A DNA stretch of 64,000 bases from Escherichia phage ERS-1: sequence record PP337211. One strand, 5' to 3'. The stretch's first letter is position 1. Every line of letters begins with the position of its first letter. A program made the translations under genes and the position numbers. The notes under the pieces are model-generated. The model saw nothing but the letters and a program-made list of their open reading frames with translations, made no database searches and was not told the DNA's origin. This document shows positions 1,966 through 30,700 of this stretch, one piece after another.

Positions 1966-1967
1966 AA

Positions 1968-3150: not shown

Positions 3151-3282
3151 ATCAATTCCTCAAAGGCAATTCATATGTTAATAATACCACAGTTTGAACT
3201 TCTTGTAAACAACTTTGTGAAAATTATTTTAGGGAACGATAAGAAGGGAACGATGGCTTAGAATGGTAATATACAGAATGTG

Positions 3283-3305
3283 AGAAAGAAAGGCCCAGAG
3301 GGCCC
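3283..3305 (-). terminator. short GC hairpin followed by UUUCUUUCU on the minus strand, just downstream of nrdH
   Basis: ggccc...gggcc inverted repeat at 3292-3304 adjacent to the nrdH stop (3309). Confidence 0.4.
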
Positions 3306-3308
3306 GTC

Positions 3309-3617: not shown

Positions 3618-3619
3618 AA

Positions 3620-3832
3620 CTATTCCTTACTAAGAGCAGCATTCAGTTTGTTAGTAATTTTATCCAGACGCTCATTGAACTCGCTAGAAGACAGTCCTTT
3701 TTCTGGAGAAATCAAACTAATCACGAAAAATATAACAATAAAAGGAATAAGGAAAATAGCTCCAACTGTCATAAACAGAAAGAATGTTACAGTTGTAAGA
3801 AAATCAGCTAAACCTTTACGAAATTTATACAT
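3620..3832 (-). CDS. small membrane protein (70 aa), hypothetical
   Basis: Hydrophobic core FLTTVTFFLFMTVGAIFLIPFIVIFFVISLI in the ORF track translation. Confidence 0.45.
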   Translation of the reverse strand: MYKFRKGLADFLTTVTFFLFMTVGAIFLIPFIVIFFVISLISPEKGLSSSEFNERLDKITNKLNAALSKE

Positions 3833-3951
3833 ATTTTACCCTTAATTGATTAACCAAGCATTGATAAGCACTAAACTATACTGCGAATAAAATTCTGGAC
3901 CAAAATGAAAAATCATATCATTTATAGTGTCCACAATATAATTCAATTTAA

Positions 3952-4419
3952 TCATTTTCCCCACACCCCATCGGTATTTGACCAAAGTCGCTGATTATCT
4001 GATCCTCGCCACAACTTTTTGGTCGGAAGATTTTTCTCATACTTCCCATCAATAATAACATCAACATATTTAAGCATTTCTAGTTGTTTAATATCTTCAA
4101 ACTTATATCCTGTCCACAACCAAATGCTTTTATTGGGATAAAGATTTTTTACTGTTTGAACGATGCAATGAACAACATCTCGGTTATCAGGATAGAGAGG
4201 GTCTCCTCCAGTTATAGTTAATCCTTCTATATAATCATTATTCAAACATTCAATTAATTGCTCCAGTGTTTCACCAGTGAATGGAACGCCATTTCTAGCA
4301 TTCCAAGTACTACGATTATAACAACCTTCGCATTTATGCAAACAACCTGTAACGAAAAGAACGACCCTGCAACCAGGGCCATTCACAAAGCAGCACGGGT
4401 ATATTCTGTCATAATTCAT
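3952..4419 (-). CDS. nrdG: anaerobic ribonucleotide reductase activating protein (radical SAM), NrdG
   Basis: CLHKCEGC (CxxxCxxC) radical-SAM cluster motif; translation matches my memory of T4 NrdG. Confidence 0.85.
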   Translation of the reverse strand: MNYDRIYPCCFVNGPGCRVVLFVTGCLHKCEGCYNRSTWNARNGVPFTGETLEQLIECLNNDYIEGLTITGGDPLYPDNRDVVHCIVQTVKNLYPNKSIWLWTGYKFEDIKQLEMLKYVDVIIDGKYEKNLPTKKLWRGSDNQRLWSNTDGVWGK

Positions 4420-4446
4420 TGGTGTTTAATCCTATGCATGATTTCT

Positions 4447-4677
4447 TTATTTTTGCCTAAGATTAAATCCGCGTTCGTTCGGATTTCCCAAATATCCGCA
4501 TGTTCTTCTTATTGTGTTCATCTTTTTAGGATCAGTTTCTCCACAAATAGAACAAACAAACCCGTTTTCAGTAGGAGTCATTTCATGGGTACTTCCACAC
4601 GTAAAACATTTATCTACTGGCATATTAACGCCAAAATAATCTAAATGTTGTGCAGCATAATCCCATAGGTTCATGCC
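4447..4677 (-). CDS. nrdD: anaerobic ribonucleotide reductase NrdD, C-terminal ~76 codons only (5' part of gene absent)
   Basis: CxxC...CxxC zinc ribbon and glycyl-radical motif RRTCGYLG; upstream in-frame sequence is a poly-A tract and repeat, not NrdD. Confidence 0.7.
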   Translation of the reverse strand, partial: GMNLWDYAAQHLDYFGVNMPVDKCFTCGSTHEMTPTENGFVCSICGETDPKKMNTIRRTCGYLGNPNERGFNLRQK

Positions 4678-4780
4678 TTTTTTTTTTTTTTTAGGTGCTG
4701 TCGATTCTGTTTGTAGTCGTCTGTTTAACCTTAGCAATACTAACTGAACCAAGTACAAAACAGTCAATTGCTAAGGTTAA
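4678..4780 (+). repeat. J-unit copy 1: T15 + aggtgctgtcgattctgtttgtagtcgtctg + perfect 14-bp palindrome arms (ttaaccttagcaat / attgctaaggttaa) around a 28-nt loop
   Basis: Directly read; ~85% identical by eye to the unit at 25997-26098; arms identical in both copies while the loops differ. Confidence 0.8.
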
Positions 4781-4857
4781 GTCAATTGCGTAGTGAAGTA
4801 AGAAAGTTGAAAAAATCAGTTTACATTGACGATGATTTTGATTACAATACTTCTCAA
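4781..4857 (+). repeat. perfect inverted copy of 2731-2807 (internal fragment of the T4-like ORF 2686..2961)
   Basis: 77/77 nt identical to the reverse complement of 2731-2807 by manual comparison. Confidence 0.85.
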
Positions 4858-4922
4858 CCAGTTTAAGTTTAAATTAATCTTTTGAGGTTTGTCGGAACAA
4901 TTTATATTAAACTGGTTCTTTT
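4858..4922 (+). other. hairpin (ccagttta ... taaactgg) followed by ttcttttt; terminator-like but with a 41-nt loop
   Basis: 8-bp inverted repeat 4858-4865 / 4907-4914 and downstream T-run. Confidence 0.3.
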
Positions 4923-4927: not shown

Positions 4928-4971
4928 AGGTGCTGTCGATTCCGTTTGTAGTCGTCTGTTTAACCTTAGCA
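4928..4971 (+). repeat. left 31-bp inverted repeat of block A (aggtgctgtcgattccgtttgtagtcgtctg) plus ttaaccttagca half-site
   Basis: 30/31 identical to 4693-4723 and to the reverse complement of 25689-25719. Confidence 0.8.
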
Positions 4972-5002
4972 TATGTCTAATGTCGAAGCCACACACCACC
5001 GC

Positions 5003-5850
5003 CAGAGTTAAAGGATCGACTCCCATGGAACACCAGCACCTTCGGCATCAAGCTGAGCAAGATCTTCCCGTGGCTGGTTCAGGAAGGAGCTGCCGGGATC
5101 AATCGACTTCCCGTGGCGGACCTCCTCAACGCGCCCGGAAGGTGAACAGGCCTGCGCATGACCTTCGCCCAGCTCCGTCCAGGATGACCTGGCGGTGAAC
5201 GGTCGCCTTGGCGGGACGTTCAACCTGCTTCGCCGCCGGAAGGATGACGAAAGCGACGGGACCGCGGGCGCCGCCGCACGGGCGACTGTCCGTGAATGCC
5301 CGAACCTCCCTGGCCGGCTCGGCATGAGTTCGCCCTTCACGTGGTGGGGCCTTCCACCTCCCGGAGGAAGGCCGGGCGTCTGGGCGTCCGGACGATGTCA
5401 CCTGCCTGGAGCTGCGGCGGCGGCTCGTCACGCCTGCTCGGCGAAGGACCTGATTGGTGGGGCCTGGCTGTCTGGGTTGAAGCCCGGGACAGGTACTGTA
5501 CGAACACCGAGCATCCGAGGACCCTCCGGTGATGGTGGACATGGCGGGGATCAAGCGCAAGGACGCCAAAGGAAACTACCTGGGCCGTCCTACGGGATGG
5601 GCGGGGCGAAGATGTGCCTGGGCTCGGGCTCCCGACGATGATGGCCGTGCGCGGCCCCCGCTTCCGCTGTTCGACGCGGCACCTGCCCGGAGGGTCGGCG
5701 CCTGGTCGCGGAAGGGGCGCGGAGGTTCGAGGCCGCGGGGCCGGAGGGTCAGGCCCTCCTGGACACCCTCCACCCGGGTGCCCGTTCGCATCGGAGAAGC
5801 TGGCGAAGGCTTGCGAAGCCCGGGCGAAGGCCGTGGGCGGCGTCACATGA
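5003..5850 (+). pseudogene. first coding region of block A, hypothetical protein, frame lost repeatedly
   Basis: Protein-like stretches in three frames in succession (LPWNTSTFGIKLSKIFPWLVQEGAAGINRLPVADLL; DDLAVNGRLGGTFNLLRRRKDDESDGT; MVDMAGIKRKDAKGNYLGRPTGWAG; FASEKLAKACEARAKAVGGVT-stop at 5850). Confidence 0.35.
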
Positions 5851-10758: not shown

Positions 10759-13700
10759 GGTGCCGCTTCACTCAGCGGTTGTTGCCTTTGGGGTGGCTGA
10801 GGAGAACCCCGGGGCCGTCGGTTTTCGGGACCGGCCTCAAGACGCCATCGCCTCCTCCTCCGCGAGGGCTGCGCATCCCTTCACGCTGGGAGTGCAAGCT
10901 GGAGTTCGGCATCAAGCGGATCGCGTCCGGGTCGATGACTTCAACGTGGTCACGATGAACAACCGCCGTCTGGGCTTCACCACGGAGGTCGGCAAGACCT
11001 GGAAGTGTGGCCTTCCGCGAGCTGTATGGCGATGGACGAACGGGGCGAAGTGTTCGAGGCCTGTGAGGTCCCGGAGGTCGCCGCGGACGAAACCGTGATT
11101 GTGGTCCGGGGCGAAAGTTCCTGGATGTCTGGGCTCCCGCTCCACCCTTCCCGTCCTCCTGAACCGCTGGAGTGCGCGAGGCTGTCCGTGCCCTTCCCGG
11201 CCGTCTCGGGTTTCGCGCACGACCGGGGCGCGAGCTACCGGCTGGAGGACCCTTGGGCCGAGGTGTCCGGAAGAAGGTGGACCTGACGGAGGATCGGACC
11301 TTCGGAAGTGGTCCTGGACATGCGCCGCCGTCCGCCGCGGGCTCTGCGAATCCGGCAGGCTCCTCTGATCAAGAAGGCCGCCACCGCGCCCAAGGTGACC
11401 TTCAGCGTGCGCTGGAGTTCGAGGGCGTGGAGCCGTCCTAGCCCTTCCTGGCGACCGTCTCCGAACTCGCCTGCTTCGACTCCTCGCCGCCGCTCCGCGC
11501 CGAAGGCTTCGCGCCTGGACGCATGGATGGCTCCCGCCAAGGAGGCGACCCCGACGCGCCTGAGCGAGCTGGAACGGACCCGGCTGGAGAAGGCCGCGGG
11601 CTTCTGCGAGCGGCTGGGCTTCGCCGTCCAGGAGTACCCGATCCGTTGCTGTGAGTTCCTGGGCGAGGAAGTCCTGGGCCGGCGGCGAGAGGGGGATCAG
11701 GTCCGGGAGCCTGGTCCTTGATGATGGGTACACGCTGGCCGGCACGCTGATCGAGGAGTTTCGCCTTCGCCCCTCCGCTGGACCATGAAACCTGCCGCGG
11801 GTTCCTGATGGACACGTTCGTGTCCTTGGGCGGAACAGACGTTGCAGAACCGCTATGAGCTGGAACACGCCCTTCCGTCTCACCGGAGATGCCTGACCGC
11901 CGCCCGGGCCGTCCGCATCCACGGCCACGCCCAGAAGGCGGAGCTGGAACGCGAGTTTCAGGAGCGACTGAACGAACTCGGCGGACGCCCAGGAGCAGAC
12001 CAGCCGGGCCTGGCCGGTGCTCTGAACGCCGCGGACCTCCCGATGGAGGAGCTGGGCGAGTGGGAGCTGGACGCGAGCTATTGGATGACCCCGGCTGCGC
12101 CTTCCTGAGCAAGCGCGAGGCGGAGGACGCCCGCCCCTCCTTGGGCGACCTCCTCCGTCGTTGCACGGCCTCGGCTAGGCACCTCCGAGGAGCCCGACTA
12201 TGACAAGGAGCCCGATCAGAAACCGCTGCCGATCTTCGCCCTCGCCCTGCTGCCCCTCGCCCGCTCGCGGTCCGGAGGACCGCCCCCGCAGAACGCCGGG
12301 AGACGGTCCGGCGTGCGGGTTGGCGGCTCCTCGCCTCGCCTCGCCCCTCCGTCCCGGGTCCTCCCGGCGGAGGTCGGGGCGAAGCCGGACCCGGCCCGCT
12401 TCGAGCGGCTGGAGTGCTGCCGCGACCCGCCCGACCCCTGGGTGCCGTATCGTTTGCGAACCTCGGAGAAGGGGTCAGAAGATGGAAAACCGGAAGAATT
12501 ACCCGCCTGGGCTGACGAAACCTTCGGCAGTGAAGCACCCGGTGGAAGTCGCCGCCGCGGATGAACGTGGAGGTGGCGGAGCTGGTCGCTGGCCTTGCCA
12601 CCGTCGCCGCCGTCCCGGTCGGAGGATGGACCCGGAGCTGGTCCGGGAACTCCGGAAGGAGTGCGCGGACGTGTTCGGTTGCTCGCCCGTCGCGGAGAAG
12701 CTGGACGTGGACCTTTGGGTCTGTGGTGAACTTAGGGATGGGGGTGCACCGCTGCTGGGCTGGACCCGGAGCCCGTCCGGAAGATGTGCGTGGAAACCTT
12801 CCTGGACCCCGGAAGCGGGCTGAAATGGAGCTGGAAGGTTGACCTTCCCCTGCGACTCGGGGCTCTTTGCTGGGCTTCCACTCCGCCGACGTAGCCCTGA
12901 ACTGGGTCGGTCCGCGGCAGGGGATCGCCGCCGAGCGGAGGACGCCGTGGTGCCGACCTTCCGGCCGGGGCTTCTTCGAGGGCCTGACGGGCGTGAAGGT
13001 TGTACCTGGGCCGCGAGCTGCGCGCCTTCTGGAAAGCCGGACCCTGTGCGAAGGAGAACCTGGGACGTCACGATGGCGGGTGTCCAGGCCCGCCTCGGGC
13101 GCAACCCGGAGGACCCCCGCAAGTACCAGGTGACGGTCCTGGTGTATAGCCAGTTTGCCCCGGCCTGAGCCTCCACGGACATTGACCTGGCCAGTGCGCG
13201 AGCCAGCACCCCTTCCAGCCGATCGGGACGGCGGAGCCGCTTGCGCGGAGTACCTGGGGAGAAGTACGGCGACAACGACCCCGCGGCGGCCTCCCGGGAT
13301 GCGGTCCGCGCCTTCGGGAGGAGTGCCGCTTGATGGCGGAACTCGCCCGCGACGTACCCGGAGAAGCTGAAGCGCCTCGAAGCCGACGTGGCCAAGCTGT
13401 CCGGTCAGAACCCGGCCCGCCGCGCCGCCTGCGCCACCCGTGGATCCCCGCGGAGAAGCTGCTGCCCGCGGGAAGTCGCGTGGCTGAATCAGCGCCTCGG
13501 GAACTCGGAGGGCCTGCTGTGACGGACCTGGACGAAGCGGCCCTGGCCGTTCTGTTCGAGGAGTAACCGGTACGCTTTCCGGTCGCGGACTGGGAGGAGT
13601 TCCTGGTCATTGCCCGGGCGTCCTCGCCTCGGAGCGGGTCCGCTGCCGGTCGGCGCTGGGAGTATTTTGTGGAGGACTACCTGGAAGCCGATCTGCGCCG

Positions 13701-16410
13701 CCTTCTCCTCGCCGGCGGTTGTCGTTTGCATCGCCCGCCTGGCGATCCCGGGACCGCGACCGCTCCGCTGAAGGAACTCCCGTGGTGGAGACGCCGGGCG
13801 CTGCTCGCCCTCCTCCCGAAGCCGGATGACGAGGGTCCTGATCCGGGGCGGGAGAGGTTGATGATCGAGAGAATGGCACCCGGGCGGCGGTTTTTCGGCA
13901 ACCTACGCCCTGAAGAGGGCGAGGAGGCTGCGCGGGTGCTTGGGCCGCGGCCTTCGAGGCGATTGCCCTGATCCCCTCCGCGAAGCCGGAGGAGGTCCTG
14001 GGTTACCTGGACCTGCGCGTATGGGCGTCCCACCGCGGATGAAGTTCTGACGGTACCCGGTCGCCCGCCGGGTGGAGTTCCGCCGGGCTCGCCTCGCGCG
14101 TGCCCTTCGCGGAGATTCAACGCCAAACCGCCCGCGGGGCCTTCGAGGACTGACCATGATACGCTTTGACAAGTCGAAGCCTACGTGGGCGACTTCCTGA
14201 GCGAACTCCGCGGGACGGGGCCTGGGCGGAACATCGTGAAGGACTCGCCCGCCCAGCTCGGCCCTACCCGGAGCGGGCGCTGTGGACCGGGAGGCGGCTC
14301 GCCTTCCTGGGCGAGCCCGGGACTACCGCCTGGAGCTGCGCCGGATCGAAGGCGGGCACTGGGAGGCGATCCGCGAGGAGCGCGACCCGGACCGCTTCAA
14401 CCTGCTGATGAGTCGACCTCGCGTAAGGAGGGCGACGCCATGAAACCAAGACTGAAGCGTAGCGCCCCAAACGGGATGCAGGAGCCGGAAGGCGCAGCGG
14501 GTGCCGCCGGTGAACCTTGACGCGGCGATCGCGGGGCCTCCGCCTTCTCGCCTTCGCCCTGTTCCGTCCGGGCTGTCGTGGAGGCTATCGTGGACCTGCG
14601 CGTAGACGGCCCGGTGTCCGACGGCGACGGCTCCGCGGCGACCTCCTGGGAGGAGCTGGAGCGGTCCTGGGGAGGAGACGGTGGAAGGTATGAGGGCCGG
14701 AACTTGAAGGAGAACCGGGCTGGGAGCTGTGCTGGCATCGTCCCGGAGGTTCCCTTTGTTGGAAGAGGTGACGGGCTACGCCCGCGCCTGCCCTGGAGGC
14801 CAGAATTCCGTTTCGGGATGCGGGGTACCGAAGGAGTGAGAGATGGATCGGAGCGAGTTCTGAGCTGGCTGCGGAGCCTGTTCGGCGGACGCCCGCCGCC
14901 CCGCCGCCGGAGTCGGACTGATCGCCTGGCCCGGATGATGGCCCCGGGCTTCGAACCTTGGCTGCCCCTACCCGGAGAACTTCCCCTTGGAACTTATCGA
15001 ACTGTGGGGGCGTGGTGAAAAATGATTCGACCGGTGACCTTCTCTGGGCGACCGCCTGGGGTTCGGAGTCGCCCGCCTGGTGCACCCGCCCTCCGGCGGA
15101 GGCACTGCCTTGTGGCTAAGGTCGAAAACCACCGCCAGTCCTTCCGGATGTCGCGGAATGGCCGTGGCCAGTCCAGTTTGCCCCTGGGCGCGCCTGGTCG
15201 CCCCGCGTCGCCGCCTGGCCCCGCGGCATCGTCCTGATCCAGGAGCGGACGCGACCCCTGCCCCGGCGGCGAACTGCCGAAGGCAGCTGCCCGACTTCTT
15301 CACCGACCTGAAGCCGGAGAACTTCGGCCTGATCGACGGTGGTGGCGGTGCGGCATACGCCCTCCGCCTCGCCTCCTCGAACCTGGTTGGGGAAGGCGAA
15401 GATGAAGAAGGTGAAGAAGGACGAATGGCGACTGCCTGACAAGATCCATGCCCGATGGGAACGGAGCTGGGGCGGAAGTGTTGAGGCGACGGCACGCCGC
15501 TGCTGAGTTCGGTGATCCGGGCAGGCGCGGCCGACTTCGCGGACGCGATGCGCCTGGAAGTGGAGAAGAAGCGGGCGGAGGGCCGGCGGTTGGACGATCT
15601 TACCCGGTGCCGGCTGGATTCCCTCGCGGTGATGCTGCTGGATCGCCTGGAGAAGGGCGACCCCGTGGACGGTGCCTTCGCCGGCGCCGCAGACCTACCG
15701 CGGCGACGGAGCGGACGGGTGGGCCCTCCGTCCTCGGGGCGACCTTCCGCGAATGGCTGGATCTCCGCCTGGAGGCCCGGGACATCGTTGCCTCAACCTC
15801 CAAGCCGCTTGGAAGGCCGCGGCCCGGATCGCGGAGCTGGAGGGGATCGCCGGACGCCTCGAAGGCGAGCGCAACGAGGCCCGCCGGTCGCTGGAGGAGG
15901 AGCGGGAGGTGTTCGGGCAGGAGCTGGAGGCGGAGCGGACGCCCGCCGCCGGTCGGAGCTGAACCTGGCCCGTGCCGGAGGGGTTCACCGCGTGACGGAA
16001 GGCGAACCGCCGCTGCCGGGAGTGCGGGCGAGGTCGGCGCAGCGGGTCGGAGGTCGGCCGGGCGGTACCGGATCGCCGCGGACCGCGCCTTGACCTGGGC
16101 GAACCCCGCGACCCCTATCAATTCCGCCGATGGCCCGCCGGAAACCCCGCCGCGGGGAGTACGTCTGCCGCGGGGCCTATCCGGTTCCCGCACCGCTTCG
16201 CAGGCGGTCGCTGCTCGGGCTACTTCATCGCCGTGGAGCAGCGGAGTTGGCACTAGGGGACCGGCGACTGCCGCCTACTGTAACTGCCTCAACCGGACGG
16301 AGGCCGTGCCCACTGCGAAGTGGTGGAGGGCGGCGAGTCGGTCCAGGAATGCCCCGTGTGGCAAGAGTTTGTACGATTCAATGAGATCAAACTGAAGAAG
16401 GAGAAGTGAG

Positions 16411-16968
16411 ATGAGTGATGACAACACGATGGACAGGCGTGATGATCGACCTGGAGACGATGGCGACCGGCCCCAGCGCCGGGGTCGTTTGTCGGGGCCA
16501 TCCGTCGTTCAACTGCCGAACCGGATTGGTGAAGCCGGACCTGTTCGAGGTGGACGTGGACCTTCACGCCGACGCTGGGCGGCGAGGTCGATGCTTCCGG
16601 CGGTCGGTCTGGCGGGACCAGGTGGACCCTGCCCAGCGCTGGCCGAAGGCGATGCGCTCCGCGCTGACCGACCTCGCCCTCCTGGTCGGGGTACCCGGAC
16701 CGAAGCGGGTCTGGGCCGGGGCTGTCCTTTGACGTTGCCATCTAGGGTTACTATCGCCGGCGGGCGTCCCGATCCCCTGGCATACTCCGCGCTGATGCTG
16801 ACACCCGAACCGTGTATGACCTGGCGAAGGAGCGGGGCTGGTCGAAGCCGGAGGGGGAACGGGGCCGTTCTGCCGCCTGGAGGACTGCCGCTGCCGTACC
16901 CTTGCCGTCCATCAGCGCCCTGAACGTCCTCCGGGGCAGCCTGAAGGAGAACCCGGTAATTGGCTGAC
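16411..16968 (+). pseudogene. DnaQ/DEDD-like 3'-5' exonuclease, frame-disrupted
   Basis: AAGGAGA RBS then ATG 16411; Exo I-like motif VMIDLETMATGPSAGVV (16439-16489) sits in a different frame from the start codon; protein-like C-terminus ...SISALNVLRGSLKENPVIG ending at 16968 in a third frame. Confidence 0.35.
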
Positions 16969-19900
16969 GAATCGACTTGAAGGATGGAATTCCCTTCCCC
17001 CCTTGCGGACCGCGAAGTGGCCCGGATCGCGGAGGAGGCGGCGACACACCGCCCGGGAGCCGGCGACTGTGACCTGTGTGGCGAATGGAGCGGGAGGCTG
17101 GTGGAGGAGTCTGTGCGCCCTGTCGGACCGCCCGGGCTTTGCCGGTGAATCGAAGAAGTTGTATGAGGGCTCTACTTCTTGCAGGCCCCCCGCCACTCTC
17201 CTTCGTTGCAGGTACCGGCCTGAAAATGGAGAACGGCGATGACCTGGATTTCCGCCTCCAACCCGACACCCGCGCCACTGCCCCGCTTCGTGGCCGGTTT
17301 CACTGTCCTCGCCTCTGGCGGTAGCCCTCCGCGACCCTCGGCTACGCCTTCAGCCGCTAGAGCGTGGTTCCTGGCCTGGTCCGGCGACTCTGCATGGCAT
17401 GCTGGAGGATGTACCGTGAAGGACGTGTACTGGAACCTGGCCCACTACCCCCGTCTGGAAGGCTCGGGTGCCCCCGCCCTCGCCCTCCGAAGTTCCTGGC
17501 GTCATCCCCGACCGTCGCCCGAATTGAAGCCCTGGGTGGAGTTCCGCGCCCCGAAGGCTGCGCCGGTGGTGAAGGCGGGAGCGCTTCTGCCAGGGGCGCC
17601 GGGTGCCCGCCCCGCGCCCGGGCTGGCCAGTCCTGATGGAGCTGGCAAGCCCTGGTCCGCCGCTGCTCCATGGTCCAGCCCCGCGAAAGTCCGGTCGGCG
17701 TAGGAAGGACGGAACCGATCCTCGCCGGCGAGCGCCTGGGCTCGCCGCGGGCCTTCGACCACCACCCGGGTTGAAGGAGCCCGCGTGTATCTGGAAGGAT
17801 GAGCCGCCGCTGGAGGGAAAGGCCCGAGGAAGATGGAAGCGAGTACCAGAAGCGGGAGGGCTCCGGCCCTCCCCCCCGCGGGTCGAAAAAAGTTGTCTGC
17901 TGGGCTGACCTTCTTCGGGTTGGGTCACTTTTTGTTAGGCCGTAGAAATGGAGAACTGAAATCAGCCGACTCCCGCCCAGGTCGCTGCCCGCGAACTGAT
18001 CGCAGGCTGGGGCTCGCCTCGCTGGGCGATGTCCGGGTTGTCAAGCCGCTGACCCTCCCGGCCGGAGTACCTCCGCGGCCCGCTCCTTCGCCGGTGACCG
18101 CGCGATCCGCCGGATCGGTGCCGGTCCTCCGCGGGACGTCCCCCTGGCAGCTGATCGGCTTCGGACCTCGCGGAGGTCGCCGGGCCCTCTGGAAGTCGGC
18201 TGCCGTTGACCGGGAGGGCCTGGCTCTCCCCCTCCCGGAGAAGGAGCCCCTTGTGAACCGGTGGCCGCCTTCCCCACCCCCTCCCCTCGTCCCCACTCCT
18301 GTTCATCGGAGTCGGGGAGCTGGGGCTGCTCTTCACCCTCCGCGAGACGGAGCTGAAGGCCGTCCCGGGTCCTGGCCCACGGACGCGGTGGTGAATGGCG
18401 TGTATCGGGGTCCTCCGAGGTCCGTGCTCCCGTGAAGAACCTGAGCCGGGACCGACGAAGCCTTCGAGAAGGCCCGGAAGCCTCTGCAGCGTATGGGCCG
18501 AGCCGGTGACCTCCCGCGACTCCCTGCGCGAGGAAATGAACGCGATTCACCGCGTGACGCTGCGGAGCTGGAGCGCCGGGAGCGCGAGCGGAAGGAGCGC
18601 GAGGACCGCCTGGGCCGCGGAACGGGCCGCGGAGGAGGAGGAGAAGCGCCTGTACCTTCCTGGGCTGGAAGTTTGCCTTCGGACCTACGCGTGGCGAGTT
18701 CCCAGGCCCCGCGGGCTGGCCTCCGCCGGTCGATCCAGCCTCCGGACTTCGAGGAAGGTGGCCTGATGCGCCTGACCGCCCGTGAGGTCGCCCGCCGGGT
18801 CCCTGTCCTCGCCCGCCGAAGCCGAAGCCCGACCTGTACGTGGGCGAGCCGAGAGTGCATCACCTTCGACGTGACCGTGGTGCGCCGTACCCTTGCGCCC
18901 GTGACGCCTGGAACGGCTACGGTATCGAGACGGTCCAGGCGTTGCGATGATCGACCGCGCGACCGGGGCCTGCCTCGTGTCCAAGTCCGGGGCCTTCTAC
19001 GCGGAGGAAGGCGAGGAGCTGAAGATCAAGGCCACCGTGAAGGAGCACGCGGAGCACCGCGGCCAGGCCCAGACCGTTGTCCAGCGGGTCGCGGTGCTGG
19101 AGGACTACCGGATGCGCCGGGAACCTCTCAGCTCGCGGTTGTTCGGAGGGCGAGCTGTACGCCGCCTGCACCAGGACCCCCTCACCGGGGCTCTTACGCA
19201 GTGGCCTTTGCCGGAGCCCTCGGGGAGGCCCGGCCGTCGCCCTCGTTGACTGGACTCGCTGAAGTGGACGGGTCACCTGCCCGGGCTTACCGCGTGGGTG
19301 ATTAAGCTTCGCGCTTGGCGGACGCCCTCGTGCGATCCTTCGGAGCTGACCGGGCGTTCCGCGCGTCGGGCGATGAGTTCGCCGTTATGGGTGATAGCCG
19401 TGAACGTCTGCCCGGGCTCGCTTCTCCGCGCGAGGGTCCGGGTTTCTGCTTCGGACGGGGATCGGAGGCGGCGGAGGCGGACGGCGACCTGGCGCGTCGA
19501 GGGGCGGAGGGGGAGCGGTCCGGCCTTCGGGGCCGCGCGAGGGCTCCTCGACCGCCTTGGGGTCGATCATCGACCTCCGGGGGGCTTTACTTCTTCGGAG
19601 GCCCCCCGTCACACTTCTTTGTCGGGCGGTCCGGACCCGGAGAACGGCTGCCGGGGCGGCTGGGCATTTACTGTCTCCCCTGTCCAGGCCACGGACCTGC
19701 GCCTCCAAAGTTCTCCCGACCTTCTTTCGGGCGTGACTTCCTCCGGGTCCAAACGGCCCTGGACCGCCTCCTTAGATGGCGGAGGAGTAGGACGGTGCGC
19801 ACTGGTTCATGTACAAGCTGTCCAACGGTGCGACTGACCTGGCCCCGGCGATCACCGACCGGAAGCTGCGACTGACCGTGGACACCAACGGCTACGGGCG

Positions 19901-20634
19901 AGGTCAGCGGAGACGCCGCGGGCCTGATCGCCTGCCTGTTCGTGTCAACGCCCTCGCTGGAATACCCGCAGCGCCAGGACTACGTGGACCTGTCTACAAG
20001 CCGCGCGACTTCGCCTTCGACCGCCGCAGGCTGAGGAAATCACCGCTGCCTTCGACCTGATACCCTCGGCGCAGCCGACCGCCCCAACTTCCCGGCAAGG
20101 AGCAGATGACCGGTAGACCGCCCCCGGACCAAACCTCCTGCAGGAGACTTTCGTTGGTGTCGCCCCTGACGTGACCGCCCGCCGCGTCCGTCCTGGGCGA
20201 CTTCAGGTGCGCCTCGGCGACCGAGTCGATGCCGGCTTCCGTCCTTCGCCCCGGGCGGAAGTCGGACCCGGCGACCCTGAGCTGGAACCCGTTGGCCCGT
20301 TCACGCTGAAATGGCGACCCCGCAGGGCCTGCACATCCCGGCCGAGGTCCGGCTGGAACATCGCCTTGCCCGCCACTTCGACCGCCTGCTTACGATGGTC
20401 GGTGGACCCCCTCTGTAAGGTAGAAAAGGAGCCCGCGATGGCTGGGCGAGCCACCGCCGTTGGGAGAACCCTCCGTCACCTCCGCGACTGCGCGGAGCCG
20501 CGCACCCCCTGGGCGGATCCGGAAGCCCGCGCCCGGGCGTCCTCCTCCAACTCGCCGTGGAGGCGGCTGGAGGAGGTCGGGTGACGATCACCGCCGCGAG
20601 CTGGACGAAGCCCGAGCAACGCGGGAGGTGAGTG

Positions 20635-21825: not shown

Positions 21826-22490
21826 ATGTCCCTGGCTGAGTTCGAGGACCGCGTGGCGGATCCCCTGCCTCATCGTGGTCACCACCGGGAGCCCTGACGT
21901 GCCCGCGAAGTGCTGCGGCCCGCCTGAAGATCGCTACCCGGCGGAAGGCGGATGCGGTGAATGGGAAGTCCGCGACCGCCGCGGACGCCCGCCCCCTGGC
22001 CTGGAGCGGGGTATGACGGAGGCGGAGCGCGAAGCGGTTGACCTGGCCGTGTTCGATCCGTGCGGAGGACCGGCGATGACCTGCGTGCGCGTCCCCGGGG
22101 GTCGCTTGCCGTCGCCCTCTTCCGGCTCCGCCTCGCGGACGGCTCCTGCGCGTCGGAGCCCTGCCACCTGCGGGCTGCCTCTTCCGCGACCGGCGGCTGG
22201 CGTCTTCACACGAGTGGTGGAGGACCCCTGCGATCTGCGCCGCCCTGGACTGGTCCTTCAACGAGGAAAACGGGCCGACCGCCCTCGCCGCGGGATGCCC
22301 CGCCGGGTGGTCCCGCGGTGCCGACTGGTCGAGTCGGAGGCCGAAGGCTGCGGAAAACCGGCGGGCTCCCCCTCCTTCTCCCTTCCACCGGGTGCGCTTG
22401 GGTTACGGGAGTGCGCTTGGGTTCGGCTCCAAAAGTATGAAGGGGTGCGTGGCGGGAAGTTGTAGCCGTCTGGGGTTCCTGCCTTGCGCT
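21826..22490 (+). pseudogene. hypothetical protein, last gene before island 1; frame-disrupted
   Basis: GGGAGGTGAACG-ATG at 21813-21828 (MSLAEFEDRVADPL then stop); protein-like text resumes in other frames (GMTEAEREAVDLAVFDPCGGPAMTCVRVPGGRL; ICAALDWSFNEENGPTALAAGCPAGW); stop at 22488-22490. Confidence 0.35.
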
Positions 22491-22597
22491 TAGGTTACTT
22501 GGGATTCTTACCTGAAACAAATTTGCCCAGGGTTGACCCGGCGGACCGGCCTGAGAATCCTTGTTGAGGCTTCCGGCTGTCCGAGGGCTTCCTGGGG

Positions 22598-22700
22598 CTA
22601 AGGTAAGTAAGTTAAGTAAGTTAAGTATCTATCTATCTATCTATCTATAAAGGGCTGTTTTATATGGCCTTTTTGCCCGCTTGACTTTTTACTTTTTCGG
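22598..22700 (+). promoter_or_regulatory. island 1: AAGGTAAGTAAGTTAAGTAAGTTAAG (stops in all three frames) + (TATC)6 microsatellite + TATAAA + TTGACT + T-rich run
   Basis: Directly read; AT-rich intergenic module between the 22490 stop and the SD+GTG start at 22927; homologous inverted copy at 63420-63515. Confidence 0.7.
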
Positions 22701-22926
22701 ACGTGGAAGTGAAGCGCGACCCCTCGAACCTAAGCGGAGGACGCCGCGTGCCTGCTTGGGTCTGTTGCCCGTCGCTCCCGCGCCTCCCCCGCGGGCGAGC
22801 GCGACCCGCCCTTGGCGAACGCAGGCTTCGCCAGACTCGCGGCGAGGATGTCCTTGGGCGTGAGGCCGGGACGGATCGCCGCGTGATGCGCGATTGACGG
22901 GCGGTGCTGCCCAAGGGGGAGGTGAT

Positions 22927-24000
22927 GTGCCCATTGAGAAACTGAAGCCGAAGCCGATGGTGCCCTTGCCCTTGGATGGAAGCAGTACCTGGAGTTGTTC
23001 CGCACGTCCCGACCTGGGTGGGTGGAAGTACCGTGCGCGGAGGCGTGGGCGTCTCCGGCTCCGCCGTTCCACTATGCCGTTGAAGAATGACCCGGAGTTT
23101 GCCCTGGCTCTGCAGGACGCCCGCCAAGCGTGGATTGATGAGATCCTGTTGCGCGGCCCTGAAGCGGGCGCGGGACGGCGCGGCAGCGCCCGATCGGTCG
23201 GGGAAGTTCAAGGACGAAATTATTGGATGAGCGGGTGTACTGTGATTCGCTGATGGCCTTGACGCTCCGCGCCCGCCGTGCGGAGTTCGGGAGGACGGGA
23301 GGACGTGGCCTGTATCACTGCCCTCGGCCCGGTGGGCGCCGATCGTCCCGGGCCCCGGCGTCGACCGGACGACTGGGAATTGTTTGGGACCTCGCCCGCG
23401 GGACCGTGGGCCGTCCGACCGGGAGGGCGATGTTCGCCTGGTCCCAAGCGGGCAGGCGGTTGCCATCGCCGCCCGCCCGGACTACCCGATCGAGCGGCGC
23501 GAGGCGGAGCCCGGCGAGCTGCGGGCACCACGTGGACCCGGAGACGGGAAGGAGTCGGAGGCGACCTGGTGCGGGTACGGGTTGCAGCTCGCCTTCCTCG
23601 GCGTCCCGATCTTCGAGGTGCTGTATGAGGGGACGCGCGGCCCGGGCAAGACCGACTGCCGATGGACTTCCTCCAGCACGTGGGGAAGGGCTACGGTTGG
23701 AGCGGCGGGGTCCCCGTTCCGTCTGGCAGGGACCCCCGCTGTCGGACGTGATCAGACACAAAACCAACAAGTGGTTCAAGCGTTTCTTCCCGGCTAAGTA
23801 CAGGCAAGGTGGGTTGGCGACCTTCCCGGCACGGCGAGGAGCTGCTGCTGTGTCGGCGGTCGCCGGAGGATTATTGGAACTACCCACGGCCACGTGCCCG
23901 TGGATTGGCTGGGAAGAACTCTTGGGCTGGGCCTGACAGCGCCACCGTTGCGACGTCCTGCCGCCGCTCCCAAGCCGGGGATGCCCCGCCGCGACCCGGG
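22927..24000 (+). pseudogene. P-loop NTPase-containing coding region (copy 1), candidate packaging/terminase-like ATPase, frame-disrupted
   Basis: GGGGGAGGTG RBS then GTG 22927; Walker A GTRGPGKTD at 23630-23656; further protein-like segments in shifting frames (MPLKNDPEFALALQDARQAWIDEILL; DFLQHVGKGYGW; SDVIRHKTNKWFKRFFPAKYRQGG). Confidence 0.35.
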
Positions 24001-25688
24001 CGACCGGCCCCACGGCCCCGCCCCTGGCTGGGTCAGGCCCGCTCCCGCCTCCCCCGTTGCGCGGTCGGGTGATCCTGGACGCGATGCGAGACGGCGAGCG
24101 CGAACCGCCCCGGGTCGCCTTCCCGGTTCCTTTCCCATGAGAACCGGGTTGCTCCTCGCTGACCCGGAGGGCCTGGTATTCGAGCCGCGGCCCGGAACCC
24201 CTCCGACTCGCCGCCTGGCTCCACGGCTCCTGCAGGTTGTTTGCGGGAGGATGTTGTACGAGGCTTGCACCGCGGGACGCACCGCGGCGCCCTCCGTCCC
24301 GCTGTCGGTGATCCCGAAGCGGTGGAAGATCGACCTGCGGCTTCCACCGGGCCGGAGCCCTTTGCCGTCCTGTGGTGGGCGGAGTCGAATGGGAGCCGTT
24401 CGAGCGGAATGGCCGCGTGTACGGAAGGTGCGGGGGCGATCTGTACCTGATCCTGTAGCGGGTACGGCTGGAACGGGAACGCGAGCAGGGCGTCCTGCGG
24501 CTCGCCTCGGAGGTCGCCCAGTGGGTGAAGGACCGGGAGGAGGATTGGGCGCTGGAAGGTCGGGTCAGCCCTGGCCCCCGCGACCTTCTCCTCACGTGGA
24601 GGTATGGGGCCTGGATTGCTGTGGAGGCGGAGAGAGGGTGTGCGCCTGGACGCCCGCGGGAGGCTGGGCTCGCGGGTGGGCTGGGAGGGGTTGGCTGTCG
24701 GAGGGCGCTGCCTCCGGCGGCGGGGACCGCGCCAGGTCCCTGGGCTGTTCGGTTTTTTCGACCCGTGCTGGTGTCGTCCAGACGGTCCCGCGCTGCCCCG
24801 CGATGAGGTGTACCTGGGATGACGTGAAGGCGGAGGCGGAGGACCGGTTGGTGACGCGACCGCTACCGCGTGCGGGGTAAGCTGCGTGGTGCGGTGGTGG
24901 CCCGCAGAGGCTCGGCCGGGTCCTCGCCTTCGGGCGAGAATCCGCGAACCTGGAGAACCGACGGCCGGCGAGACGGCAGCCCTGCCGACCTGCGGGGCGT
25001 ATTAACCGCGCTCCCGCGCTGGCCCACGCTCCAGACGCCGCCTGGGCGGGACCGAAGGGCGCGCGAGGCGGGCGAGACGTACCTACCCCGCCCTCGGAGG
25101 AGACGGCAGGGTGGGCTATCGGGAGCGCCTGGCCTCCGCCGCTCCTCCTCGGCGGTTGAACCTGGGCGCCTGGACCTGCCCTGCAGCGGAGCCCTTTGCC
25201 AGCCGATCAAGCCGGCCAGGACGTGCCCGGAGGCGATCCAGGAGATGATCCTGCCTGACGTGGACCTCCTGGGGCTGCCCACGCGTTCGCCCGTCCTGTG
25301 GTTCCGCCAGCCTATCCGGTGAGGCCCTGGCCTCCTCGTCCAGACCGCCTCGCCCGGCCCCGCGGAGGATGGCCTACCCGGACCTGGCGGATGACCGCCG
25401 GGAGGGCCTGCGCCCTGACTGGGTGATGATCCAAGCCGGAGGCGCCCGCTGTTGGCCCGGTCGGAGGTGATCAAATGGGGCCCGAGTCCTCTGCGTGCTG
25501 CTGTCCAAGTTACGAGGCGGAGGCAGGACGGCTTCGCGCAGGCTTGGGAGCGCTGTCCGCGTCCTGGAGCTGGGCCTTGTCCCGGCTCTGGCAGCCGGTG
25601 AGAAGTTGGTGGTCCCGCAAGGAGGAGTGGGTGCTGGCGGATGAGCGGGCCATGGGGCTGAACCACGTCCCTGTGGTTGCCTTTACGC

Positions 25689-25719
25689 CAGACGACTACA
25701 AACGGAATCTACAGCACCT
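25689..25719 (-). repeat. right 31-bp inverted repeat of block A (reverse complement reads aggtgctgtagattccgtttgtagtcgtctg)
   Basis: 30/31 match to 4928-4958 in inverted orientation. Confidence 0.8.
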
Positions 25720-25725
25720 GAGTAT

Positions 25726-25771
25726 GTATTGCTAAGGTTAGAGGGAAACACGATAGAATCCAACAGCACCT
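25726..25771 (-). repeat. partial J-unit, variant b, inverted (aggtgctgt-tggattctatcgtgtttccctc-taaccttagcaatac on the minus strand)
   Basis: Shares the aggtgctgt head and taaccttagcaatac tail with the J-units; middle resembles the 26008-26040 variant. Confidence 0.7.
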
Positions 25772-25996
25772 AAAAAGGTTCAACTTTTTACTAAATAATA
25801 AATGTTGTAGTATCTTCTTAAAACGAAAAATTTAATTTGCTTTAAAACCTTCCCAATTTTTTTTGCCTTTTTTTAACATACGTCAGAACATGGAAGAATG
25901 GTGGCCGTTTTTTACACTGTGAAGAAACAATTTTGAACTTTTAAATGACTTCCATTTATATTGTTTTAATTTCCTTTTTTCCCGTTTGTTGTTAAT
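25772..25996. other. AT-rich spacer without a convincing ORF, phage-like (T-even-like) composition, T-runs
   Basis: Sharp GC drop between two GC-rich blocks; only very short ORFs; ends in a T11 run leading into J-unit 2. Confidence 0.4.
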
Positions 25997-26098
25997 TTTT
26001 TTTTTTAGGTGCTGTTCCGGATTTATCGTGTTTCCTGATTAACCTTAGCAATACGTAACTGAACGAAGTACATAAAAACACCAATTGCTAAGGTTAAA
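25997..26098 (+). repeat. J-unit copy 2: T11 + aggtgctgt + variant spacer + 14-bp palindrome arms around a 32-nt loop
   Basis: Same architecture and arm sequence as 4678-4780. Confidence 0.8.
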
Positions 26099-26099
26099 A

Positions 26100-27216
26100 G
26101 GTTACACAAACCCTGGACAAGCAGCACCCTCCCTTTGCGGTGTTCTCCGGCTCCGCCTTGTCCTTTGAGAGCGGAGGGGTGTCGCTTGTTGATGCAGCGG
26201 GCGATGGCGAACATGGACCAGAGGTGCGGGTGGTCCGCGAGGGCTGACGGATGCTTCTCGTCCGGTCCTGGTCCCACCCTTCCGGTTGGCTCCTGGAAGA
26301 TGTTGGGTACTGCCTGTTCCAGACCGGGTCCGCGGTCGGGCCGGGGCTTCCCGGCCTTGCGGTCCGGTAGATGTCGCGCCGGGCCTTCAAGGCGGCGACG
26401 TCGTCGACGCGCGGGGTGGTCGGTGCTGGGTCCTGGTCGGGCCCTCCGATGACGGCCTTGATGTCCTTCAGGGCCGTCTCCCTGTGGATGTCGCGGACCG
26501 TCTCGCCGTCCGCCAGGGCCTCCCGCGGACCTGGGCGATGGCGCGGTGCTTGTTGGTCCTTCCCTGGTCCTCCTCGACGGGCTTCCCGCCGTCGCGCTCC
26601 TGGATGTGCTTTGGCTTCCAGCGGCGTGTCCTGAAGGCCGGGTCGCCGCCGTTCGCCTTCGACCGCCACCCTGCGTTGGTACCTGTAGATGGTGCTGATG
26701 GCCGCCCTCAAACCTTACCGCCTTCACGTCCGGGTCCCGCCCAACCAGCTCCGCGACGGCCTTGGCGGCGGCTTGGGTCTTGATCCGGTCTGGGCCGGCG
26801 GTGGTCGCTCCGGCGGCGGCGGTGTAGTCCCCGATGATGGCGATGCCGTCCGGGGCGTGTTGCCGGGATCGGCTTGTGGTCCGGGGACGATGACGTTGAT
26901 GACGCGGGCGGATCGCGGGCCAGGCTGCGCGGGGGTGTGCTCTGCCGGAGCCGTATGCCCTGCCCGTCGATGTACTTCGGTTGGTTTTCCAGTTTGGTTG
27001 AAAACGGCGGAGCCGGAGCCCCCGCCTGGGGTTGCTGTTGGACCCTGCGCGATCGGATGATCTTGCGCTCGCCGCCGTCCTCCTCCGGCGGGGCTGGTTT
27101 CCCGACCTCTGAGTCTGGGCGAGCGGCCTTCGCCGCCCCAGGTTCCGAACCGCGGGCTCGGCTCGTCGTCGTCCGCGCGGTGGAGACCTGGCCGGTGGGG
27201 GGCGGCTTCCCCTCAC
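26100..27216 (-). pseudogene. hypothetical protein, frame-disrupted
   Basis: Protein-like segments in two minus frames (DGIAIIGDYTAAAGATTAGPDRIKTQAAAKAVAELVGRDPDVKAV; EALADGETVRDIHRETALKDIKAVIGGPDQDPAPTTPRVDDVAALKARRDIYRTARPG). Confidence 0.3.
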
Positions 27217-27521
27217 CTCCTGGAGGGCTGGCCCGTCGGTCCGGGTGAAGGTTCGGGACGCGCTGGCCGTGGCGGCCCCGCGGCGATCATTTCACGCCTT
27301 CCAAAGCCAGTGCCGGTTCGCCGGTTCCGGGCTTCCCGCGGCGGTCCAGGCGTGTCGTCGCGTAGGTCGTTGCCGCGCTCCGTCGCCGGTTCGGTACCTG
27401 CCGGCGGGCTTCGACCCGGCACGGCTCGCGATGGTCTTTCCGGGCTCCGGCCTGGTTCTCCGCGGGCTGTCGGCGAAGGCTTTGGTGCGCCCCGGGCTGA
27501 ACCGCTTTTGGAGGTGTTCGA

Positions 27522-28655
27522 TCATTGCTGGAGCCCTGCTGTAGCCCGCTTCCCGAATTTTGCGATTGCGTGGTCGTTGCCGACCGCGGCCTGGCGCTCG
27601 AAGCTGTGGCGGATGTCGTCGTGGGTGACGATCCCCGGGATTACCGGATTGACCTGATGGAGGTGTACATGCCCGACGCGCGCTCGCGATTTCGTCGGGA
27701 TGGTCCTGAAGGCTGATGGCCCCGGAGGCTCGTGCCGTTGTGGTCGTTGCCGGTGTTCGGTGACTTCTGGGCGTAGCTGTAGGGGTTCCGCTTCGGAGGT
27801 CGATGGCCGGATGGGGTAGCAGACGGCCGGGAAGAAGACTGGGCCGGGAGTTGGCGAAGGCTTCCGCCCCCGCCTGGGTGTTATGGGGCGCTTTGAAACG
27901 GTGAAGGGGTCCGTGAAGCTGGAGAAGCAGCCCGCGGCGGAGGTCCGGACTTCGAGAGGCATTTTGCGGACCTGCTCGCCGTAGTTCACCGGGACGCTGA
28001 TGAGGCCGGTGCCGCGGTAGCCCCGGAACCCGCTGTCGACGTAGAAGGCGCAACCCACTGTAGCCCCATAAGGCTCCGTCAGGATCGCCTCGCTGCAGGG
28101 GCGGGCGCGGGAGCCTCGCTTGTCGTTGTGCTTGTCCTGGCACCTGCCCTGAAGGGGCTTGGCGTTCGGGATGCGGATGTGCGGGAGGTAGGTGACGACC
28201 CTTTGAAGCCGGTAGGCCCAGCCCTTCACCTCCTTCTTGTCGTCTCTCCTTCGCGTTGCGGACCGTCCCCCCTGCCTTGCCGGAACTTCGCGCGCTGGCG
28301 CCGGTCCTGCACCCTTCTCCCCCATCGGGCCCGGAACTCCCGTTGGTTCGGTCCGGCGGCGAAATACTTGTAAGCCTCCTGAGCGGCTTCGCCGGTGCCT
28401 TCCTGCCCTTGCCTGCGTGGTCCGGTCATTCTCCTTCAACTGTGAAAAAAGTCTTGAGCGCCTTACCCGGAAGAAGTAAGCGGCGTTAATCGGCCCCGGC
28501 TCGCCACGTTGTTTCCGGGAGGTCCCCTGGCCTTCGCTCCTCCGAATGCCGGCGACCGGCGAACTGCCGGAACCGCGCGGCGACCCTTCCGCGTCATATC
28601 CTCCAGGTTGTCCTTTTGGGACCCGAGGGAACAAATGCTCGGGGTTGACGCACAA
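27522..28655 (-). pseudogene. hypothetical protein with possible metal-dependent hydrolase motifs
   Basis: Long protein-like stretch (KGWAYRLQRVVTYLPHIRIPNAKPLQGRCQDKHNDKRG...) and GHVHLH; family not identified. Confidence 0.25.
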
Positions 28656-30700
28656 CGGTCGGTCGCAGCGATGAACTTACGTTATCGCCGTCGGGATGGA
28701 CCGTCGAACCTGGCCGAAGGATAGCCGATGAGTGCCGTCTTAGTCTCATGTTGGCGTGCTGCTTATCATTGACTGGGAGCCGTTGGTTGGTCCCGTCTCC
28801 GGTCTTGATAGTGGGCGTCGAAGTAGGTGAGCCGGTCCGTCGATTACCCCATGTTCGGAATGATGGGGCGTGGGATGGACGAAGCCCGTTGAGCGGTTGC
28901 TGCGCTTTAGCTTTTGGGTTGGTAACGGGTTGGGGGAACGGGGCGGAGGCGTCCCGGGCTGCGTCCGCGTACCCGTAGCCCTCGTCGTATTACCGGTCAC
29001 CCGGTTGCCGGGTGCCTGGCCGCGGCCTTCCCCATGTACTCCCGGGTGGCGTCCTGGCTCTGCAGTATCCTTGTGGAGGATGACGTTGTAGTTGCGGGCC
29101 CGCCCCCTCCAAGCCCTCTTCAGTGCCCGGCGGCGACCGTCCCCGAGCTGAGACTGATGACCGGGGTCCCGGAGTCCGGGAGGTGCGGGGCGGTGCGGAC
29201 GGCCTCCGCGGGCGTTCTCCGTGATCGACTCCGGGAGCTTCGGGTGTTCGGCTGTAGCTGTCGTGGGAGTTCTCCCGTGCTTCTTGGCCGGACGGGGATC
29301 GCGGAGCGGCCCGCCGGCATGTCCAGGTCCGCCCCGAGCTGGCGAGCGCGCCCGCCGCCGGACGCGCGGGGCGTCCGCGGCCCCGTCGCGCTTGAAGCGG
29401 GGCCAGTAGTCCACGGCCTGTTTCCCAGCTGCTGGCAGGCGACCGCCCGGCCCGCCTTCGAGCGGTACGTGTCCGGCTGCCGATGGTGGTTCTTGTGGTC
29501 TCGATATGGGCGAGGCCCCGCCAATCTCGCTGAAGGACGGCACCGGGAGCGGGTGCTCTCCCCGCTTCAGGATCGGACCCCGTTGAGCGGGCGTTTGACC
29601 GGGCGTCGTTGACGACGTTGCTGCCTGGCGTGGTCGAGGAAGGCCCGTGCGGCGGAGGGCGGCCTGCCCGGTTCGAGCCCGCCGTCGATTTCCCGGATGT
29701 TGTTCCGTGGGTAGTGGCCGTTCGACGGTGGGGATTTTCCATTTACACAGCACCGTTCTACCTCTGCATGTTCGGCGGGTGGTTGCCCGGGTGGGCGGGG
29801 CGAGGTCCGCGAACCGCTGGTTTGCAGTCCGCCACCCGGACGCTTGATCGCCTCGCGCTTGGGCTTCGCGTTCTCCGGGTACTGTGAGCCTCGCGCTGCT
29901 CCGCGTTGCGGCCTTCTCCGGGTCCTTGAAGGTTAAGGCGGCGTCGTGCCGAAGTCGGCCGCACTTCACCGGTTCGACCTGTCCGCGATCTTGAAGCCGA
30001 TCCGGTCGGACCGAAGCCGTCGTGCTCCTGGGCGCGGGCGGAGACGGTGCGGAAGGGCAGGCGCTCCTCCGTCGCCCGGGCTCTCCCGTGCCCCGCCTCC
30101 GGGCGGTCGCCGTAGCGGGCCTGGAGGGAGGTTGCGGAGTCACGGTATCGGCCTGTAGCGGCGGTGCTCGCGTCCCCGGGGGCCTGTGCTCCCCCGGCGG
30201 GCGTCTCCTCCTCGTCGCGGGCCGCGACCTTCCCGGTGCGGCAACTCCTCGCCCTCCTCCACCAGGAAGGAGGCCACCCGGCGTGGTAGCTCCAGAATAA
30301 CCGAGGAGCCCGGGAGCTGCGGCACGGAGAAGTCCCCCGCCTCCTCCGCCCGAACCAGGGCCGTGTACACGGGTCCAGATCGCCGGTGGTGATCAGGTGT
30401 CGGCCGGGGTCGTCTCGATGTCCGGTCGCGGGGCAAGTTCTGCTCGGCTTTTTCTGGGTATGCGTGACTGATTTTCCCGGCTCAGGTCTTTGCGATGTCC
30501 GGTTCAGAGAATTGGCGACGAAGGAAGGCTCCGGCGGGACTTTTCGTCACGTGATACGGGAATGGACTTGTCTGGCGCCGCCGTCGCCGTCCTCCGTGAT
30601 CCCTGGTGAACCCGGCAGGAGCTTGAAGGGCTCCGTTCTGTATCCCCGCTCCGCCGGGCACCTGCCCGGCGGGGGTGCGGTGTGCGCTCCGAGGCTCCCG

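Follow-up and report, generated by a model that had tools for sequence, protein, structure and literature searches.

Frameshifts in a gp41-type exonuclease gene of a YuA-like Pseudomonas phage are very probably basecalling errors in one uncorrected nanopore read

The gp41 exonuclease of the YuA-like Pseudomonas phages (Yuavirus) is an already known gene that is highly conserved in this group, and about 51 phage records code for the protein at identities of at least 95%. In the phages YuA (YP_001595864.1) and vB_Pa-PAC7 (XAI94816.1; referred to as PAC7) the gene comprises 573 nt and encodes 190 amino acids, and the protein reads MSDDNTMDSVMIDLET...SFDVAIL...HTSLED.... The intact PAC7 protein matched the Rv2179c-like 3'-5' exoribonuclease domain of the DEDDh type (PF16473) over profile positions 2–172 of 177 (E = 1.3e-30, 106.9 bits) and shows the motifs Exo I (DxE), Exo II (D), and Exo III (Hx4D). 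It also matched PHROG 255 ‘exonuclease’ with 204.7 bits and, weakly (E = 0.009), a 227-aa chain deposited as ‘Exodeoxyribonuclease’ (8KEN/8KEL), which we take to be T4 DexA.

The DNA of phage M6 is hypermodified. Roughly 30% of its T is 5-(2-aminoethyl)-deoxyuridine (5-NedU), as stated in PMC11946847, which cites PMC5889632. Only a modified thymidine was reported from LC-MS of M6, and the modification motif in M6-type DNA was still unknown in 2018 (PMC5889632). Restriction resistance pointed to modified T in TG or TC (PMC6449724). A full M6-type cassette is present in PAC7, the nearest relative of the phage analyzed here, and consists of genes for a thymidylate-synthase-like protein, Nmad5, a 5-hmdU DNA kinase, a radical-SAM protein, a PLP-dependent protein, and an amino-acid:DNA transferase. 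In our literature search, nothing specific was retrieved on how 5-NedU or Yuavirus DNA behaves in nanopore sequencing.

The locus studied here lies in a stretch of DNA of 64,000 nt, which is called the window in the following. The initial annotation had described it as the decaying relic of a DEDD exonuclease whose start codon, Exo I motif, and C-terminus stand in three different frames. The following features were distinguished:

16398–16403, + strand: ribosome-binding site (RBS) AAGGAG, 7 nt 5' of the genuine start ATG at 16411 (direct reading)
16411–16967, + strand: Yuavirus gp41-type gene for a DEDDh 3'-5' exonuclease, very probably as an uncorrected copy from a single read
16436, + strand: extra G (GGACAGGCG versus GGACAGCG; alignments to YuA and PAC7)
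about 16442–16459, + strand: Exo I motif MIDLET, containing the D and E of DEDDh, in the second frame within the ORF 16415–16732 (translations)
about 16721–16744, + strand: Exo II region GLSFDVAI (GPSFDVAIL in the ortholog), located in the third frame, where a false stop interrupts it
16865–16892, + strand: Exo III region, H-TSLE-D in the ortholog; the His codon CAC is destroyed in the window (TTC-TGCC-GCCTGGAGGAC) and LED is kept

The three-frame arrangement was indeed present in the sequence, as seen from the RBS, the ORFs, and their translations. The ATG at 16411 opens the reading MSDDNTMD... in the first of the three frames used. An ORF in the second frame (16415–16732) starts with GTG 4 nt past this ATG and encodes VMIDLETMATGPSAGVV, and an ORF in the third frame (16812–16967) encodes the protein-like tail ...YDLAKERGWSKPEG...ALNVLRG...IG*. 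The true end of the gene is at 16967 with the stop codon TGA (16965–16967), which gives a length of 557 nt in the window compared to 573 nt in the relatives. The Exo I motif is out of frame with the ATG because of one surplus G at 16436, which causes the first apparent frameshift and has no counterpart in any relative. Further downstream, alignment to the PAC7 ortholog revealed deletions of T and TG at 16740–16744 in the Exo II region, and the deletions in the Exo III region fall on the CA dinucleotides of CACACCAGC.

The ORF that runs from 16411 in a single frame matched no profile. When the three frames were joined by hand, the resulting translation matched PF16473 over profile positions 3–148 of 177 (E = 4.2e-6) with 27.0 bits, a score that lies exactly at the family cut-off of 27 bits and is attained only by this manual stitching. 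The Exo I stretch of this translation aligned to profile positions 3–48; the acidic pair D-x-E is present as MIDLET in the second frame, and the Exo II aspartate as SFDVAI with the false stop after it. Together with the 106.9 bits of the intact ortholog, the stitched match bears out the earlier assignment to the DEDD exonucleases (Rv2179c/DexA-like), and the matches obtained were PF16473 and PHROG 255 rather than RuvC/YqgF-type nucleases or nothing.

At the DNA level, 701 bases around the gene, aligned along 97% of their length, showed 87–88% identity to 58 phage records, nearly all of which are YuA-like Pseudomonas phages (Yuavirus), and the matches covered the annotated exonuclease gp41. Similarity to this extent, like the stitched profile match, goes far beyond chance. 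An exact 58-mer taken from the gene had no match in collections of viral, metagenome, and genome contigs. Judged by its sequence, the gene is an ortholog of Yuavirus gp41 and a predicted DEDDh 3'-5' exonuclease of family PF16473 (Rv2179c/DexA-like). The window copy has the same locus and neighbors as gp41, and the RBS and the start position are identical in the window, YuA (GTG start), and PAC7 (ATG start). It differs from gp41 by 29 indel events and by the missing Exo III His codon, differences that are attributable to read errors and not to the phage.

Global alignment of the window gene with PAC7 (573 nt) yielded 40 substitutions, 9 insertion events, and 20 deletion events, whereas YuA and PAC7 differ in this gene by 15 substitutions and not by a single indel. 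Part of the 40 substitutions is real strain difference. After the frames had been restored by the alignment, 148 of the 191 codon positions (stop included) gave the residue of the ortholog. An indel-to-substitution ratio of about 0.7 is typical of single-molecule read error and not of pseudogene decay. The differences were also unevenly placed: 41 of 69 were located at or beside a CA dinucleotide, although such windows make up 24% of the gene, and 10 of 30 CA sites were intact compared to 46 of 51 GA sites. Programmed frameshifting and a truly divergent ortholog had been considered as well and were dropped in view of the 29 indel events per 573 nt and the about 51 phage records with at least 95% protein identity.

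The GC content of the window jumps near position 5000 from 33% to about 68%, and a YuA-like match with 80–83% identity runs from 5084 to the end of the window, the YuA-like part having 65–72% GC. The junction elements listed below were named by means of the ONT adapter sequence, the NB05 barcode sequence, and the published oligonucleotides specified after the list:

1–4667: T4-like (Tequatrovirus) read with 33% GC and about 97% identity to many T4-like coliphages, used as internal accuracy control
4693–4780: junction with AGGTGCTG, NB02 reverse complement, TTAACCTTAGCAAT, adapter, 10 nt of noise, and then TTGCTAAGGTTAA
4928–5041: second junction with AGGTGCTG, NB02 reverse complement, TTAACCTTAGCA, noisy adapter, NB07-like barcode, and CAGCACCT; the YuA-like insert starts at about 5042
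about 5042–25640: read B, YuA-like phage, genes on the + strand, about 83% identity to known Yuaviruses; contains the exonuclease
25690–25771: junction with NB02-CAGCACCT at 25690–25719, then TTGCTAAGGTTAG, NB04, and CAGCACCT at 25729–25771
26007–26128: junction with AGGTGCTG, NB04 reverse complement, an exact TTAACCTTAGCAATACGTAACTGAACGAAGT, noise, TTGCTAAGGTTAA, NB05-like barcode, and CAGCACC
26129–64000: read C, YuA-like phage, genes on the − strand, about 80–81% identity to known Yuaviruses

The NB02 reverse complement element reads TCGATTC(T/C)GTTTGTAGTCGTCTGT at the junctions beginning at 4693 and 4928. The latter also carries TTAACCTTAGCAAT after AGGTGCTG and the NB02 reverse complement, and its NB07-like barcode, followed by CAGCACCT, is located at 5012–5041. 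In the last junction, TTGCTAAGGTTAA, AAGGTTACACAAACCCTGGACAAG, and CAGCACC occupy positions 26085–26128, and the 31-nt adapter string TTAACCTTAGCAATACGTAACTGAACGAAGT is exact at 26039–26069 and was matched in none of 100 shuffled sequences. The oligonucleotides listed in bioRxiv 10.1101/2021.06.06.447246 include the flanks AAGGTTAA and CAGCACCT as well as the barcodes NB02, NB04, and NB07. The segments are separated by no fewer than four distinct barcodes (NB02, NB07-like, NB04, and NB05), and the insert ends carry AAGGTTAA-barcode-CAGCACCT or its reverse complement plus adapter, as raw native-barcoded ONT reads do. A contiguous host or phage genome, as expected for a pseudogene, was not found, as adapters and barcodes bound the segment at about 4928–5041 and 25690–26128 and the T4-like read adjoins it. 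Hence, the window is made up of five or more raw barcoded ONT reads, chained together, that come from different samples and two unrelated phages; it is neither a genome nor an assembly. It shares adapters and native barcodes between inserts of unrelated genomes with unsplit or concatenated ONT reads (the ‘middle adapter’ chimeras targeted by Porechop), but chains at least five to six reads in 64 kb, which is more than in a typical two-read chimera.

One region of the YuA-like phage was read twice:

22286–25472, + strand: terminase region, copy in read B; its partner is the reverse complement of 60720–63831 in read C

The last 3.1 kb of read C re-read this region from the opposite strand and with a different barcode. 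In a self-comparison, 22286–25472 and the reverse complement of 60720–63831 shared 70.7% identity with 367 gap positions, which is about the product expected for two independent reads that are each about 84% accurate. A three-way alignment with PAC7 contained 406 columns that differed in read B only, 517 that differed in read C only, and 128 that were shared, i.e. 923 columns were private to one read compared to 128 common to both. The 128 columns in which B and C differ alike from PAC7 are plausibly true strain differences. Since the two copies disagree with each other more than either does with a third phage, they cannot both be real sequence. The indel-rich errors that are independent between reads correspond to what raw ONT reads show, and the disruptions were not reproducible in the doubly covered region, as those of a pseudogene would be. 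The exonuclease locus itself is covered by one read only, and that its indels are private is extrapolated from this overlap, which lies 6–9 kb away.

The errors were not evenly distributed over dinucleotides. These statistics rest on 6.4 kb, twice 2.7 kb, and a control of 2.7 kb rather than on whole reads; the YuA-like stretches analyzed were 13003–20322, 22300–24950, and 61230–63817. When read B was compared with YuA over 6.4 kb, the A of 5'-CA-3' on the + strand of the window was miscalled at 62% of 329 sites, with the miscalls distributed over G, deletion, T, and C, compared to 13% for the A of GA and 18% for the A of TA. The corresponding figure for the same dinucleotide in read C was 84%. 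The error peak comprised a single base and fell to about 0.16–0.18 at a distance of at least 7 nt and to about 0.09 far from any CA, and the CA error rate was independent of a T within 6 nt. At the same base pairs of the doubly read region, read B was wrong at 80% and read C at 38% of the CA sites, whereas read C was wrong at 84% and read B at 28% of the TG sites. TC sites had no excess error (13–17%), and no clear dependence was found at the positions −2, −1, +2, and +3 around TG. Away from TG the difference from the reference was still 9–16%, well above that of the T4-like read. This control read matched its nearest relative at 97.4% identity; only 11 of 2693 columns were gaps (0.4%), and the CA error was 4.9%, without any excess at CA.

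Two further observations concern base composition. AT skew at 26001–64000 was −0.23 to −0.40, and GC content was about 3–4 points above the 64% of real Yuaviruses. A of the reference, and less so T, was miscalled mainly as G or C, and A was deleted more than any other base.

Which base could not be read depends on the strand that was threaded through the pore. The adapter ends are mutually reverse complementary, and the sequence by itself has no orientation. Complete 5' adapters and truncated 3' adapters are the usual look of ONT reads. Viewed on the − strand, the 5' adapters were nearly complete (TGTACTTCGTTCAGTTACGTATTGCT-AAGGTTAA-barcode) and the 3' adapters truncated at TTAACCTTAGCAA; viewed on the + strand, no base was missing at the end of the 3' adapters, and the 5' adapters were cut to TTGCT. 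Because of this adapter completeness, which was the only basis for the orientation, we took the − strand as the threaded strand and infer that the unreadable base was the T of 5'-TG-3'. Thymidine modification combined with the + strand as the strand read was rejected: the center of the errors would then be the A of CA without any dependence on a T within 6 nt, and a modified thymidine would offer no explanation.

The window also encodes homologs of three enzymes of M6-like thymidine hypermodification, which appear as noisy genes spread over several frames:

27056–28405, − strand: radical-SAM gene
28909–29618, − strand: PLP-dependent gene
29630–30405, − strand: amino-acid:DNA-transferase gene

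The remainder of the M6-type gene set (kinase, Nmad5, and thymidylate-synthase-like genes) was found in PAC7, and the corresponding part of the genome lies outside both YuA-like reads of the window. T in TG context accounts for 26–37% of all T here, close to the approximately 30% modified T given in PMC11946847. The TG context is one of the two proposed from restriction resistance, but TC, which was likewise proposed there, showed no excess error (PMC6449724). In our data the signature of such a modification is indirect, namely the T of TG being miscalled at 62–84% of the sites, an effect that the T4-like read does not show, and its link to the errors depends on the read orientation chosen above. 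T4-like DNA is normally modified as well and contains glucosyl-hmC. The T4-like read was accurate despite this modification, which counts against an account of the errors by modified bases.

Based on these results, we are highly confident that 16411–16967 is one uncorrected ONT read of an intact, ordinary gp41-type DEDDh exonuclease gene from a YuA-like Pseudomonas phage, and that the frameshifts are basecalling errors, likely caused by modified T in TG. Barcoded raw reads would have been chained head-to-tail, either as consecutive reads left unsplit or by later concatenation. The − strand, opposite to the gene, would have passed through the pore, with the T of TG presumably carrying the 5-NedU-type hypermodification made by M6-like phages, a base that the basecaller could not read. 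The three-frame look of the gene would result from some 29 spurious indels and some 40 substitutions over 573 nt. The apparent decay most likely arose because the basecaller failed where the T of TG is hypermodified, with ordinary read noise added to this. This explanation joins direct observations (adapters in the window, non-reproducible strand-specific errors, dinucleotide specificity, the accurate T4-like control, and the hypermodification genes) with a read orientation and a chemical identity of the cause that we infer. Given the error analysis, the loss of the Exo III His codon in the window says nothing about the real gene of the phage.

Regarded as a relic, as initially annotated, the locus would be a true pseudogene, i.e. 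a decaying exonuclease in a YuA-like prophage or fossil that is degenerating within the genome into which it had integrated. This would agree with the Exo III histidine being missing, with neighboring genes that appear broken to the same degree, and with more than about half of the protein lying in no single ORF on the + strand, the strand of the gene, in 16411–16967. However, ONT adapters and four different barcodes separate the segments inside the window, a T4-like segment directly adjoins the YuA-like one, and about 59 kb are collinear with lytic Yuaviruses without large deletions other than known accessory-gene differences. Moreover, the two copies of the terminase region differ from each other more than either does from the reference, mostly in columns that are not shared, and the errors are specific for a dinucleotide and depend on the strand that was read. 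The indel-to-substitution ratio of about 0.7 to 1 in the window (29 indel events and 40 substitutions) stands against none among real relatives, as two real Yuaviruses have zero indels between them. The designation as a relic did not withstand this evidence: a pseudogene at this locus is extremely improbable, and that reading is essentially refuted.

Noise unrelated to DNA modification, either from generic low-quality nanopore reads or from a weakness of the basecaller at high GC, deserves more weight but is still unlikely. Per-read quality varies in any nanopore run, both bad reads have 65–72% GC whereas the good one has 33%, and the differences of 9–16% persist away from TG. Such noise would hardly produce a sharp peak on a single base, with 62–84% error at the A of CA (T of TG) versus 13–18% for GA/TA (T of TC/TA) in read B, nor would the effect be missing from the T4-like read. 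In addition, the affected T fraction of 26–37% agrees with the published fraction of modified T, and the phage encodes modification enzymes. If, on the other hand, the + strand of the window had been read, the unreadable base would be a modified A (or C) in 5'-CA-3', which is not described for Yuaviruses. The error peak on this strand does lie on the A of CA independently of nearby T, and the formally symmetric adapters do not fix the orientation. Yet all 3' adapters would then be complete and the 5' adapters cut to TTGCT, contrary to how ONT reads normally look. The one modified nucleoside reported for M6 by LC-MS is a thymidine (PMC5889632), and TG was independently proposed as a context of the modified thymidine (PMC6449724). 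We therefore regard a modified A or C as quite improbable, considerably more so than unrelated noise.

For the preferred reading, a basecalling failure at modified T, any novelty would be confined to the TG-specific error signature, and the TG context of the modification may be revealed by the errors themselves. The error pattern of the two raw reads could go further and represent a single-base map of the Yuavirus thymidine hypermodification, with essentially every T in TG modified on both strands and those in TC, TA, and TT not; we consider the chances for and against this to be evenly balanced. If true, the restriction to TG would account for the approximately 30% modified T that was measured chemically, the ‘TG or TC’ derived from restriction enzymes would narrow to TG alone, and current basecallers would fail at 60–85% of the modified TG sites.

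The apparent gene decay across 5–64 kb of the window is read noise and should be discarded wholesale, as every ‘pseudogene’ call in this part has the same cause. These data also serve as a warning that identity can fall to about 80–85% in native nanopore reads when the thymidine of a phage is hypermodified, with errors focused on one dinucleotide, and that assemblies of such phages, if unpolished or biased to a single strand, will look like massive pseudogenization.

Several minor features of the reads were observed in addition. T runs of about 10–15 nt occur at about 4678–4692 and 25997–26006, each placed between a T4-like insert and the AGGTGCTG flank. Seen in the direction in which the strand was presumably read, they are poly-A straight after the barcode, they are absent from the ends of the YuA-like reads, and a basecalling artifact at the transition from adapter to insert is a possible source. 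A 99-nt T4-like fragment at 4781–4877, which carries adapters of its own, corresponds in reverse complement to 2709–2807 of the long T4-like read with 93.9% identity; from this agreement, the accuracy of a single read of T4-like DNA can be estimated internally at about 97%. At about 1743–1744 the T4-like read lacks approximately 260 nt of Escherichia virus KFS-EC3; they belong to a region of small ORFs upstream of nrdG, and their absence looks like natural variation of gene content among T4-like phages. Within 13003–20322, the phage sequenced here has one block of about 700 nt and another of about 400 nt that YuA lacks (YuA locus about 2000–2600 and about 4000–4500); they match extra small genes of vB_Pa-PAC7-type genomes and are ordinary accessory-gene variation.
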